Under the pieces are notes generated by a model that was not told the DNA's origin, did no database searches, and was given only the letters and a program-made list of their open reading frames with translations. From UHGV virus genome UHGV-0142786: a stretch of 10,260 nucleotides of DNA; one strand, given 5' to 3'. The DNA comes from a virus. A program made the translations under genes and the position numbers. This document shows, in pieces, positions 2,649 to 10,131 of the stretch (the stretch's first letter is position 1; every line of letters starts with the position of its first letter).

Positions 2649-3247
2649 GCAGCCCTGTCTCCCCATCTTGCTTTCATTGTTTCATTTGCAAATCGCCAGA
2701 ATCTTCCTTTGTGATATGAGCTTTCGCCATTACAGCAACGACTAATTGACGAACTATCAAATCCTTCTCTGACAGCATCCATAGCTGCTTCATAATAAAC
2801 CTCCTCACCAGTTTTCATGTCAGTAGAAATAACAGCTTTACTGGCAGGATGATCACCGCTAAATTTACCTAGCGATATAGGTATTCTTCCATTTTGTTTA
2901 TATCCGTGCTTTGAGTTTTCAGAATGTGATACCCATTCAAGGTTTTCAGCCCTATTGTCATCTCTTTGCCCATTTTTGTGATTAACTACCAAGCCATCAC
3001 AGAACCCTGTACAGAATGCTTTCGCAACTATCCTGTGGGCGCTGTATTTCTTACCGTATACCTTTATTTGAAGATATCCTGTCGACTTGCACTTGAATGG
3101 TTTTACGCTAGTGCCATTAATTATTTTCTTATATGGCCTCTGTCTGGTTGATGTTACTGTAACTTCCCTCGTAATAGACCTGAAATTTCCTTTATTGCTA
3201 ACCTGATAAAATGGAATCCCTTCGATATCTACCCAAACCTCAATCAT
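2645..3247 (-). CDS. HNH homing endonuclease (NUMOD4 + HNH_3 type), inserted at the 3' end of ninB
   Basis: 200-aa ORF. N-terminal EVWVDIEGIPFYQVSNKGNFRS resembles NUMOD4; HKNGQRDDNRAENLEWVSHSENSKHG is an HNH_3 motif. Own GGAGG Shine-Dalgarno. The last 9 residues KARWGDRAA equal the lambda NinB C-terminus. Confidence 0.85.
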   Translation of the reverse strand: MIEVWVDIEGIPFYQVSNKGNFRSITREVTVTSTRQRPYKKIINGTSVKPFKCKSTGYLQIKVYGKKYSAHRIVAKAFCTGFCDGLVVNHKNGQRDDNRAENLEWVSHSENSKHGYKQNGRIPISLGKFSGDHPASKAVISTDMKTGEEVYYEAAMDAVREGFDSSSISRCCNGESSYHKGRFWRFANETMKARWGDRAA

Positions 3248-6753: not shown

Positions 6754-7050
6754 TCAGAATTGCATATCAATTTGCTTAAAATCCTCGGTGGCGGCCGGGG
6801 ATTTTTTCTTTGTGAGTCCATCAAGCGCATACTTAAAAGCCCTGCTAATCGGACTGATGTCTGATGCCATTCCGAAAGCACACAAGACCGAAGCAATAAA
6901 TCTCCAGTCCGTTCTGCTTATCTTCGATTCATGACAGCCAATCATCTTTGCCAGACCGCGCTGGGTAAGCGTTGACAGGTTGATGAGTAAATCAGTTTCA
7001 GCGCGATCAATTTCTCGCTGTGTTGGCTTGCTGTAACTTGTTTGTGCCAT
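6754..7050 (-). CDS. cII: CII-like transcriptional activator (98 aa)
   Basis: C-terminus [19 protein letters not shown] against lambda CII TNKKRPAATERSEQIQMEF; central [11 protein letters not shown] against lambda SQISRWKRDW. Lies between cro and the replication genes. Confidence 0.8.
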
Positions 7051-7191: not shown

Positions 7192-7407
7192 TTAAGCAGC
7201 TTTGTGCTCCGGCGGGAACACATCATCAAGACTTACTTTTGCGCCTAACTTGTTTAGACACGCAACAAGAGCACGGCATGTTTTAAGGTCTGGGAAGCGA
7301 CGACCAGATTCCCAATGTCCGATAGCTCCCTGTGTGCATCCAACTGCCTTAGCAAGTGTTGTTTGAGAGATATTCAGTGACTCTCGATATTTTCGTAGGT
7401 TGCTCAT
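7192..7407 (-). CDS. cro: Cro-like HTH repressor (71 aa)
   Basis: Small HTH protein ([23 protein letters not shown]) transcribed divergently from cI, with a GGAGG Shine-Dalgarno. Confidence 0.8.
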
Positions 7408-7524
7408 ATGCCCTCCATAGTAACCACAAATAAAAAATACAATATGTACTCATTAAACACAAGCAAAAAATACACATTGTGCATGGATGGTTCCAGTACA
7501 AAGCGTAATAATAAGGACATGAAA
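7408..7524. promoter_or_regulatory. Divergent cro/cI control region (OR with PR and PRM)
   Basis: 117-bp gap between the divergent cro and cI starts. Two similar sites: AAAAAATACAATATGTAC (7433-7450) and AAAAAATACACATTGTGC (7465-7482), the second holding the palindrome CACATTGTG. Exact -10/-35 boxes not resolved. Confidence 0.55.
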
Positions 7525-8178
7525 ATGAAATGGTATGAACTGGCTAGATCCAGAATGAAAGAGCTCGGCATAACTCAAGAGAAGTTAGCCGAAGAGCTAG
7601 GTATGACGCAGGGTGGAATTGGACACTGGTTGCGCGGATCTCGTCATCCATCTCTTAGTGATATTGGTGTGGTGTTTAAATACCTTGGTATTGATAACAT
7701 ATCATTCAACCACGACGGGACATTTTCACCTGTTGGCGAATACTCATCGGCCCCAGTTAAAAAACAATATGAGTACCCTGTTTTTTCTCATGTTCAGGCT
7801 GGGATGTTCTCTCCAGAACTCAGAACCTTTACCAAAGGCGATGCGGAGAGATTGGTAAGCACAACCAAAAAAGCCAGTGACTCTGCATTCTGGCTTGAGG
7901 TTGAAGGTAACTCAATGACCGCACCAACAGGTTCCAAACCTAGTTTTCCTGACGGGATGTTAATTCTGGTTGACCCAGAGCAAGCTGTTGAGCCCGGCGA
8001 TTTCTGCATAGCCAGACTTGGTGGTGATGAGTTTACCTTCAAGAAACTGATCAGGGATAGCGGTCAGGTGTTTCTACAGCCACTAAACCCACAATACCCA
8101 ATGATCCCATGCAATGAGAGTTGTTCCGTTGTGGGGAAAGTTATCGCTAGTCAGTGGCCTGAAGAGACGTTTGGGTAG
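7525..8178 (+). CDS. cI: CI prophage repressor: HTH N-terminal domain plus LexA/S24-type autocleavage C-terminal domain
   Basis: C-terminal domain from [14 protein letters not shown] to WPEETFG is essentially identical to lambda CI as I recall it; the N-terminal domain is unrelated to lambda. Track ORF from 7408 is over-extended into the cro start. ATG 7525 has an AAGGA Shine-Dalgarno at 7 nt; ATG 7519 is the alternative. Confidence 0.85.
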
Positions 8179-8366
8179 AGGCGAAGCAGCAATTGGTTTG
8201 ATTTGGTATTGCTATTTTTTCTCTAAAGTTGTTGAGCATTTTTCCGTTAGATAAAAATAGACGCAAATTTACATGATTTTTTTGTGCTGTATTGCTTGCT
8301 GAAAGCTAGGTTTTGCGTAAACTTCAATTACTCAAATTAGAGTAAACAACATATAGGACACCCCAC

Positions 8367-8588
8367 ATGAAAAAATCTGCAAAGCACTTTTTCAGCGCTA
8401 TGGGCTCTATCCTTGACCTTTGCCCAGCAGGTAGCTACAGCGAGTATCATTCAAATGCTACAGACATCGACCTTATCAACTCAGATTGGGTTAAGGTAGG
8501 TAGTTACGTTAGAGACGCTGTAACTGATAATGAGCAGAAAAAAATCCCAAAGAAAGCTTCAAACCGCCGCCCCGAGAAATCTTGTTAA
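8367..8588 (+). CDS. Hypothetical small protein (73 aa as read), first ORF of the rex-position cassette
   Basis: AGGA Shine-Dalgarno 8 nt upstream of ATG 8367. No homology recognised. The 3' end overlaps the next ORF by 59 nt across an A7 run. Confidence 0.5.
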   Translation: MKKSAKHFFSAMGSILDLCPAGSYSEYHSNATDIDLINSDWVKVGSYVRDAVTDNEQKKIPKKASNRRPEKSC

Positions 8589-9063
8589 CCAACCAACTCC
8601 GTTAGGGCGAGTTCAAGACGGTAAAACCGAACTGCTTATAAATGAGGTCGCAAAGAACCCTCAAGTTCTTGAGCGCCTCATGGACAGGCCAGATCTAGCT
8701 GGCATCATGATGCAGGTGACTCACACTAGATCAGGGCCACTCCCAGACGCTGACGAATTAGCTAAGTACGAAAGAATATCTCCAGGATTCGCTCGCGAAA
8801 TAATGGACATGGCTAAGGCTGAGCAAAAACACAGACACGAGTATTACAAAGCAGGACAGAGGGGAGCAATTTGGCGAGATCGACTCGGACAGATCTTTGC
8901 GATGACTTCTGTCTTTGTTTTCGCAGGAATTGCTTACAAGATGATTCAGCACGAGGCTTATGGCTGGGCTACCGGGCTTCTTGGTGCTGAGTTAGTTGCT
9001 TTAACTAGCGTGTTTATAATTGGAAGAAGAGACAAACCGAATCCAAAGCAAACTAAAAAATGA
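8530..9063 (+). CDS. Hypothetical membrane protein with two C-terminal transmembrane helices, possibly DUF2335-like
   Basis: 177-aa ORF. Motif LPDADELAKYERISPGFAREIMDMAKAEQKHRHEY followed by hydrophobic IFAMTSVFVFAGIAY and WATGLLGAELVALTSVFIIG. The DUF2335 assignment is from memory and unverified. No clear Shine-Dalgarno at 8530. Confidence 0.6.
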   Translation: MSRKKSQRKLQTAAPRNLVNQPTPLGRVQDGKTELLINEVAKNPQVLERLMDRPDLAGIMMQVTHTRSGPLPDADELAKYERISPGFAREIMDMAKAEQKHRHEYYKAGQRGAIWRDRLGQIFAMTSVFVFAGIAYKMIQHEAYGWATGLLGAELVALTSVFIIGRRDKPNPKQTKK

Positions 9064-9066
9064 GAC

Positions 9067-9093
9067 AACCCGGCTTCCGCGCCGGGTTTTCTT
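9067..9093 (+). terminator. Rho-independent terminator closing the cI/rex-position operon
   Basis: Stem CCCGGC (9069-9074) / GCCGGG (9081-9086), then TTTTCTTT, directly after the stop at 9063. Confidence 0.7.
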
Positions 9094-9277
9094 TGCCTAA
9101 CGCCCCCAAAAAAACACATAACCAATTGTATTTATTTTAAAATTAATAGATACAACTCACTAAACAACGCAATTCTGATCTCTCCCTACATCGCCGAGGC
9201 AATACACCCACGCTAAAAAACAACACTATTAAATACAAAGCGTTGTAAAAAACCACCCCTCAATAGAACAAATCGTA

Positions 9278-9306
9278 TTGACCAGATAAAGTACATATCG
9301 TACTAT
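9278..9306 (+). promoter_or_regulatory. Candidate PL promoter
   Basis: TTGACC (9278-9283), 17-bp spacer, TACTAT (9301-9306), upstream of nutL and N. TACAA/TTGTA palindromes nearby at 9234-9247 and 9124-9134 may be OL sites. Confidence 0.4.
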
Positions 9307-9352
9307 TTAATCATCAGCAGGACGCTGGAAGCCAAATGGAACAGACTGGCAG

Positions 9353-9398
9353 GCTCTTTAAACAACGTCGAACACTCGACTACGTGGCTGAAAAGCCA
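9353..9398 (+). promoter_or_regulatory. nutL candidate: boxA-like GCTCTTTAA and boxB-like hairpin UGGCUGAAAAGCCA, 23 nt apart
   Basis: boxA at 9353-9361 (GGCTCTTTAAACAA resembles rrn boxA); boxB hairpin at 9385-9398. Same layout as the nutR candidate. Confidence 0.55.
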
Positions 9399-9422
9399 GA
9401 CCACCCAACCACATAAGCTGTG

Positions 9423-9496: not shown

Positions 9497-9769
9497 ATGT
9501 CCAGAAAAACAGAATTTAAAGGCACCGCAGCTTCTCGCCGTAGAGCTCGTCGTGCAAACCTGCAAAGTCAGGAGGCGATCAGCTCTGACAAACTACACAG
9601 GCCAACCCCTTCACGAGTGGTCTTACAATGCAAACGCAAACCAGTAATGAGAGCAGAAGTAATAACACTGACAACGTTGACCAGAAAATATGAAGGCTCA
9701 ACTTGTCTTCCAAATGTAGCCATTTACGCGGCAGGCTACAGGAAATCCAAACAGCTGACAGCAAGATGA
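9497..9769 (+). CDS. N: N-type transcription antiterminator (90 aa)
   Basis: Arginine-rich motif GTAASRRRARRANLQ near the N-terminus; C-terminus LPNVAIYAAGYRKSKQLTAR resembles my recollection of P22 gene 24 (LPGVALYAAGHRKSKQITAR). Track ORF from 9425 is over-extended; ATG 9497 follows GGGAGG. Confidence 0.8.
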   Translation: MSRKTEFKGTAASRRRARRANLQSQEAISSDKLHRPTPSRVVLQCKRKPVMRAEVITLTTLTRKYEGSTCLPNVAIYAAGYRKSKQLTAR

Positions 9770-9914: not shown

Positions 9915-10041
9915 TAAGAATCAATGGTGTGGGCAATACGAACGACGGCAATGATTGTCAGAGAACTTGGTAAACAGAACAACAAAGCTGCCTGATAGTG
10001 GCCTTTATTTTTGGCATAAATAACAGAATAAACACTGCACT

Positions 10042-10069
10042 GTGTATTCATTCCAACGAGTGAATACAC
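10042..10069. other. Inverted repeat GTGTATTCA / TGAATACAC with a 10-nt spacer
   Basis: Perfect 9-bp arms (10042-10050 and 10061-10069). Not followed by a T-run, so not an intrinsic terminator; could be a protein-binding site or RNA structure. Confidence 0.3.
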
Positions 10070-10131
10070 GGAGCAATGTCGCTCGTAACTAAACAGGAGC
10101 CGACTTGTTCTGATTATTGGAAATCTTCTTT

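Follow-up and report, generated by a model that had tools for sequence, protein, structure and literature searches.

The 10,260-nucleotide stretch of virus genome UHGV-0142786 analysed here (the window) carries the early region of a lambdoid prophage, recognised from its open reading frames (ORFs) and their Pfam matches and lying in the orientation opposite to the lambda map. Our subject is the set of operators in its immunity region. These lie in two places, the right operator (OR) region between the divergent genes cro and cI, and the left operator (OL) region, an AT-rich control region between a terminator (9067-9088) and the antiterminator gene N. An initial annotation of the sequence had noticed a motif, AAATACAA, shared by both regions and proposed it as a half-site recognised by the cI repressor. 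The sites and the two proteins are listed below, with scores in bits from a position weight matrix (PWM) and, where given, the rank of the site in a leave-one-out scan.

7192-7407, minus strand: cro, 71 aa, Pfam HTH_3 (E=4e-12), recognition helix TQGAIGHWE
Between cro and cI: control region of 111 bp
7435-7451: OR1, AAATACAATATGTACTC, one mismatch to the published VT2-Sakai OR1; 18.5 bits, rank 6/10244; offset from cro fixed across genera
7468-7484: OR2, AAATACACATTGTGCAT, exact match to the published OR2; 15.2 bits, rank 8; position conserved
7494-7510: OR3, CAGTACAAAGCGTAATA, one mismatch to the published OR3; 17.3 bits
7519-8178, plus strand: cI repressor, 219 aa, helix-turn-helix (HTH) N-terminal domain and Peptidase_S24 C-terminal domain (Pfam)
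9117-9133: pseudo-site CATAACCAATTGTATTT around CAATTGTATTT; 10.5 bits, probably not an operator
9231-9247: OL3, AAATACAAAGCGTTGTA, exact match to the published VT2-Sakai OL3; 15.7 bits
9264-9280: OL2, TAGAACAAATCGTATTG, one mismatch to the published OL2; 18.1 bits
9289-9305: OL1, AAGTACATATCGTACTA, exact match to the published OL1; top score of 20.3 bits, rank 1

The true start of cI is the ATG at 7519, which has AAGGA just upstream; the listed ORF, which runs from 7408, extends too far upstream.

Six operators with a common consensus

The six operators are copies of a 17-bp pseudo-palindrome, nA(A/G)TAC(A/G)-N3-(C/T)GTA(C/T)Tn. In the half-site nA(A/G)TAC(A/G)n drawn from their 12 halves, AC at positions 5-6 never varies, nor does GT at positions 12-13 in the other half, and A2 is found in 11 of the 12; AAATACA(A) is one common version of the half-site and AAGTACA the other. 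When each operator was held out of the PWM in turn, it still ranked between 1st and 8th among the 10,244 positions of the window. Six matches of at least 15 bits were present in the window, and even one such match was found in only 3.8% of shuffled windows. The spacings between site centres are 33 and 26 bp at OR, and 25 and 33 bp at OL. We consider it highly likely, from these sequence comparisons, that the six 17-mers are the recognition element of both the cI repressor and Cro, in an immunity region of the VT2-Sakai type.

The proposed motif can be accounted for by this family. AAATACA is found six times on the two strands (at 7435, 7468, 9231 and 10193, and on the minus strand at 9127 and 3043) against 1.76 expected, a count reached in none of 200 dinucleotide shuffles, and the 8-mer AAATACAA three times against 0.48 expected, with 4 of 200 shuffles reaching three. 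Outside the operator zones AAATACA occurs at only 0-0.4 per kb, both here and in six related loci of E. coli type, and its clustering at OR and OL is therefore beyond what AT-richness would give; a similar frequency throughout AT-rich DNA, which the initial annotation had named as one possible refutation, was not found. Nothing around the copies at 3043 and 10193 resembles an operator, their best overlapping 17-mers scoring -6.6 and -1.1 bits.

The suggestion that the motif is part of the repressor recognition element was borne out, as it forms the outer half-site of OR1, OR2 and OL3. The 8-mer itself is not the conserved element: the conserved core is TAC(A/G)-N3-(C/T)GTA, and the second OR site lacks AAATACAA, reading AAATACAC instead. 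Likewise, the motif had led to OR1, OR2 and OL3, but OR3, OL2 and OL1, which overlap the promoters of cI and of the N operon, had been missed. All four strings quoted in support of it are present in the window, AAAAAATACAATATGTAC from 7432, AAAAAATACACATTGTGC from 7465, TTAAATACAAAGCGTTGTAAAA at exactly 9229-9250, and CAATTGTATTT, which lies at 9123-9133, one base away from the 9124-9134 given.

Conservation in relatives of Cro

The comparison drew on loci encoding relatives of Cro, taken from phage records and, for each species, from a single genome. Among those of Escherichia, Salmonella phage L, Erwinia, Rahnella and Pantoea, whose Cro is 61-100% identical to that of the window, most have operator-like 17-mers about -36 to -43, -70 to -76 and -95 to -102 from the start of cro, with one OR site below threshold in Erwinia and one in Rahnella. 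A second operator cluster with a 25-bp OL1-OL2 spacing is present across these genera, and the spacers between sites diverge. In an alignment of nine sequences from five genera, the CGTAATAAT half of OR3 was invariant, and the conserved islands besides the operators were the -35 (TTGC/TTGT) and -10 of the rightward promoter and the -10 (TAATAAT) of the cI promoter. Centre spacings are also kept across genera (in the window and in loci L003, L007 and L009-L014), at 33-34 bp for OR1-OR2, 26 bp for OR2-OR3 and 25 bp for OL1-OL2.

The recognition helix of Cro and the core of the operator change together. Enterobacterial Cro proteins with the helix (T/S)QGAIGH(W/Y)E are paired with TAC...GTA sites, whereas relatives in Pseudomonas with the helix (T/S)Q(A/G/T)R(I/L)SNYE are paired with CAC...GTG sites at the same offsets. 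On sequence grounds the Pseudomonas relatives are a clean example of helix-operator co-variation, and both this and the cross-genus comparison as a whole strongly support the six-site model. In the Pseudomonas loci (L015-L040) the CAC...GTG 17-mers, for example TATCACGTAATGTGCTT, lie about 38-42 bp and about 780-885 bp upstream of cro.

The proteins of the window are close to those already known. Its cI and Cro are each 100% identical to their counterparts in the Stx1-converting phage AP005153; cI is 95-97% identical to that of the relatives Louie and 720R6, and Cro 99% identical to that of Louie, 720R6 and the Klebsiella phage phiKp_30. The two domains of cI were matched by HTH_3 (E=2e-10) and Peptidase_S24 (E=1e-28). 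Over residues 84-219 there are two differences from 3BDN, a chain of the lambda repressor: L in place of W in ERWVST, and RDSG here against RGSG; Louie and 720R6 keep the W. The N-terminal domain is distantly related to that of lambda (E=5e-4 to 3e-3 to 1LMB/1LLI), and cI is a lambda repressor with a swapped N-terminal domain. In our reading of the alignment, helix 2 keeps acidic residues opposite E34 and D38 of lambda. The cI recognition helix, TQGGIGHWL, is essentially that of Cro, which would be expected of two proteins that read the same operators.

Three of the loci deserve mention in their own right. In phiKp_30 (L004, LC768498), isolated from sewage, positions 700-1180 hold cro and OR1 followed within about 200 bp by an OL2-like site and OL1, with no annotated cI, as though the repressor gene had been deleted naturally. 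Two contigs, L008 (JAJXBQ010000280, from a 'Segatella copri' metagenome-assembled genome (MAG)) and L009 (JAEZIN010000021, from a 'Bacillota' MAG), carry the immunity region described here, which is of E. coli-phage type, and encode a Cro 99-100% identical to that of the window; they have probably been mis-binned into non-enterobacterial MAGs. The OR-OL distance in L008 is 1.85 kb, the same as in the window.

Promoters and the predicted switch

Three promoters were identified around the operators: the rightward promoter (PR), the maintenance promoter of cI (PRM) and the leftward promoter (PL). PL was found by a stock promoter scan that did not find PR and PRM, both of which come from a relaxed hexamer search together with conservation.

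PR, minus strand: -35 TTGTGT at 7462-7457, -10 TATTTT at 7439-7434; relaxed hexamer search and conservation
PRM, plus strand: -35 TGGATG at 7484-7489, 17-nt spacer, -10 AATAAT at 7507-7512; relaxed hexamer search
PL, plus strand: -35 TTGACC at 9278-9283, 17-nt spacer, -10 TACTAT at 9301-9306; stock promoter scan

The position of PR is that of the 'putative major rightward promoter' of AP000422, and that of PRM is the 'putative maintenance promoter for cI' in the same record. Transcription from PRM is predicted to start at about 7519, approximately at the cI ATG, so that the cI mRNA would lack a leader, as it does in lambda. The PL start, at about 9313, falls within ATCAGCAGGACGC, a sequence in common with lambda, and the start region aligns with that of lambda PL.

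The operators lie on these promoters in a regular manner. The -10 of PR is within the AAATACA half of OR1; OR2 adjoins the -35 of PRM, its centre at about -43 from the PRM start, and OR3 overlaps the PRM spacer and -10. On the other side, OL1 fills the spacer and -10 of PL and OL2 overlaps its -35. Dimers of cI on OR1 would then cover the PR -10, and those on OL1 and OL2 the PL spacer, -10 and -35, shutting off the lytic operons, while cI bound at OR2, beside the weak PRM -35, would activate transcription of its own gene. Occupancy of OR3 over the PRM -10 could provide negative autoregulation. The C-terminal domain of cI would supply dimerisation, pairwise cooperativity, OL-OR looping and RecA-stimulated self-cleavage, and Cro, with its near-identical recognition helix, would read the same sites. 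We infer from this geometry and from the C-terminal domain that the switch works like that of lambda in its order of occupancy, PRM activation and looping.

Several points weigh against this reading of the operators and the switch. The OR1-OR2 spacing is 33 bp, against 24 bp in lambda, and details of cooperativity may not transfer. In lambda the operators are spaced 24 and 23 bp apart at OR, and 24 and 20 bp apart at OL. The spacings in the window differ from these. The conserved spacing, together with a lambda-identical cooperativity domain, could also mean that the switch is wired unlike that of lambda, for example with OR2-OR3 rather than OR1-OR2 as the lambda-like close OR pair; alternatively or in addition, the pseudo-site at 9117-9133, which lambda shares, could be a functional auxiliary site of this repressor. 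The probability of such a reading is small. Some relatives match poorly at OR2, which scores 8.9 bits in Louie. The operators are called 'predicted' or 'putative' where they are described (PMC4587872; GenBank notes), and the only binding data are heterologous electrophoretic mobility shift assays (EMSAs) with lambda cI, which gave an apparent Kd of 3.7-6.4 µM on these sites (PMC10742460). A footprint or EMSA with the cognate repressor was not found in the searchable literature, a gap that is relevant to work on the induction of Stx prophages. On the sequence comparisons, the long-annotated 'putative' operators of VT2-Sakai are very probably real.

Alternative explanations of the motif

A seventh operator. 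The initial annotation had counted CAATTGTATTT among the instances of the motif at OL, and the 17-mer around it, 9117-9133, could in principle be a genuine weak operator ('OL4'), contributing for example to extra looping or to control at the end of the PRM transcript. Whichever operator was left out of the PWM, it was the top non-operator match (8-11.6 bits); the invariant AC and GT are present, as is a perfect TTGTATTT half, and the chance of such a match within this 136-bp segment is about 0.8%. However, a match of at least 10.5 bits is found somewhere in 34% of shuffled 10-kb windows, the site is 114 bp from the centre of OL3, and its left half has C at position 7, where A/G is invariant. 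Phage lambda, which has a different repressor N-terminal domain, carries the very same 17-mer (L006, positions 414-430), and phages of other immunities (lambda, SfI, BP-4795 and H19-B-type phages) share about 90 bp around it at about 89% identity. All six operators are present in Louie, 720R6 and phage L, yet these have neither this spacer nor an equivalent of the site. A seventh operator here is thus very unlikely, and the earlier use of this instance as an operator could not be upheld for a 17-mer that is lambda-identical and lies in a spacer common to heteroimmune phages. Given how often shuffled windows reach its score, its identity with lambda, the shared spacer and the want of an equivalent in Louie, 720R6 and phage L, the site is most likely coincidental or has a role independent of immunity.

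Positions 9095-9190, around this site, are about 89% identical to the lambda spacer from rexB and the terminator to OL3, and are homologous in many heteroimmune lambdoid phages. Immunity-specific sequence spans only about 9186-9311, beyond which the PL transcript start, CATCAGCAGGACGC, is again common to other phages. In lambda, 9117-9133 may overlap an IHF site or an element upstream of pL, but a search for literature on IHF and pL in this lambda-shared spacer yielded nothing usable.

The pseudo-site with the second-best score, 10033-10049 (8.4 bits), was not accepted as an operator: it lies in a conserved hairpin downstream of N, and its score is in the chance range. The match falls on the left arm of an inverted repeat, GTGTATTCA...TGAATACAC at 10033-10070, downstream of the N region, which has the appearance of a terminator or RNA hairpin. 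Louie, 720R6 and phiKp_30 have the same 17-mer.

Promoter or AT-tract features. In another reading, AAATACA/TGTATTT would reflect promoter elements or AT tracts (-10-like TATTT, -35-like TTGTAT, or UP-like A-tracts) and not a repressor element. Both regions are AT-rich, and the complement of the OR1 motif, TGTATTTT, does supply the PR -10 (TATTTT). Yet the motif at OR2 and OL3 lies outside any promoter hexamer, it always stands in the same register of the 17-bp dyad with the partner half conserved, in the Pseudomonas relatives the operator core changes along with the recognition helix of Cro, and the motif is sparse away from the operators, which together make this explanation very unlikely.

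A shorter dyad. The operator is hardly likely to be a 14-bp TACAA-N4-TTGTA dyad resembling the ACAA...TTGT of 434, as the arms singled out in the initial annotation would have it: TACAAAGCGTTGTA at 9234-9247 in OL3 is indeed a perfect 5+5 palindrome, but it is 3 bp out of the family register, its spacing occurs in no other OR or OL site, OL3 of L009 reads AAATACAAAGTGTTATA, and in Louie and 720R6 one arm is broken (TTATA) while G12 and T13 of the 17-mer register, which aligns all six sites and all relatives, are retained.

Relationship to known immunity systems

The shared motif, as the recognition element of the repressor, had been taken in the initial annotation to define a new immunity specificity. 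This does not hold: cI and Cro are those of AP005153, the operators have zero or one mismatch to the VT2-Sakai set, and the region had already been annotated. Judged by its sequence, the immunity region belongs to the VT2-Sakai / Stx1-phage / Stx2-II / 1717 group and is already known. The OR region was found in 776 of 5,426 complete E. coli genomes (about 14%). GenBank records AP005153 and AP000422 (1999-2003) mark three 'putative operator' 17-mers each at OR and OL, in the positions of those described here, along with PR, PRM, PL, the terminator of the PRM transcript and the nut sites. OR1-3 and OL1-3 of VT2-Sakai are listed in Table S1 of PMC10742460, and the sites of the window comprise three exact copies and three with one change. 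The cI2c type, with its C-terminal domain in common with lambda, has been catalogued (PMC3430580), and the predicted operators of this group are credited to Fattah et al. 2000 (PMC4587872 and PMC10742460). The 'hair-trigger' paper of Koudelka makes no mention of Sakai or VT2.

The closest relatives are the phages VT2-Sakai (Sp5), AP005153, Stx2 II, 1717, Nil2, 2851 and the PA-series PST1 phages, of the cI2c-cro4 type (Smith et al. 2012). Their cro-OR-cI and OL-PL-N DNA is 93-96% identical to that of the window, with PR, PRM, PL and the terminator in the same positions. The window differs from them in its accessory genes between cI and the terminator, in its replication module (toprim primase-helicase) and in single-base operator variants at OR1 position 17, the centre of OR3 and OL2 position 11. 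Within the window no stx genes are seen.

The immC region of Salmonella phage L / ST64T (c2 repressor and Cro) has the same operator family and layout, for example TAATACATTTCGTACTA and AAGTACATTTTGTATTG, with spacings of 34 and 26 bp at OR, and 25 and 30 bp at OL. Its Cro is 69% identical to that of the window with an identical TQGAIGH helix, and the repressor helix is TQGAIGHWL, against TQGGIGHWL in the window. The phage L repressor differs in being 48% identical overall, with a non-lambda C-terminal domain, on a P22-like backbone.

With lambda the window shares the plan of the switch: a LexA-like repressor with an HTH N-terminal domain and a self-cleaving S24 C-terminal domain, divergent cI and cro with three 17-bp operators over PR/PRM, OR2 adjoining the PRM -35, a leaderless-type PRM, and a second cluster of three over PL upstream of N. 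The C-terminal domain of cI is nearly identical, and the terminator-to-OL spacer is homologous, including CATAACCAATTGTATTT. The window is not of lambda immunity (imm-lambda), however, as the repressor N-terminal domain is a weak match, OL is divergent over about 9186-9311, the half-sites are of the A(A/G)TACA type against TATCACCGC in lambda, and its Cro is an all-helical HTH_3 protein and not lambda Cro.

The value of the comparison lies in the independent computational support that the PWM, the five-genus footprint and the helix-operator co-variation provide for the VT2-Sakai operators, in an immunity type found in many Stx phages, and in the clean consensus obtained along the way. As a discovery it carries little weight; the earlier model is corrected to a six-site 17-bp family with one spurious site removed.

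Neighbouring genes and other features

The remaining features around the immunity region are as follows.

6754-7050, minus strand: cII
8367-8588: accessory ORF between cI and the terminator, 73 aa, without a Pfam match
8530-9063: accessory ORF between cI and the terminator, 177 aa, DUF2335, predicted membrane protein
9067-9088, plus strand: rho-independent terminator closing the cI-moron (PRM) transcript, homologous to the lambda and VT2-Sakai terminator
9497-9769, plus strand: N antiterminator, 90 aa, first gene of the PL operon, Pfam N_peptide (E=2e-32)

The 73-aa ORF and the DUF2335 protein (8367-9063) replace the H0093-type ORF of Stx phages, and are presumably expressed in the lysogen from PRM. 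Downstream of PL, a nutL-like element at 9362-9402 consists of a boxA-like GCTCTTTAAACAA and a boxB-like hairpin TGGCTGAAAAGCCA with a GAAA loop; the 'putative N-utilization leftward' site of AP000422 is at a roughly equivalent position.

A search with the whole window found no complete E. coli genome covering at least 80% of it, and the prophage is therefore a mosaic. Alongside the Sakai-type immunity region it contains the toprim primase-helicase replication module, a PAPS-reductase-like gene, an HNH/NUMOD4 gene, ninB and a KilAC antirepressor.

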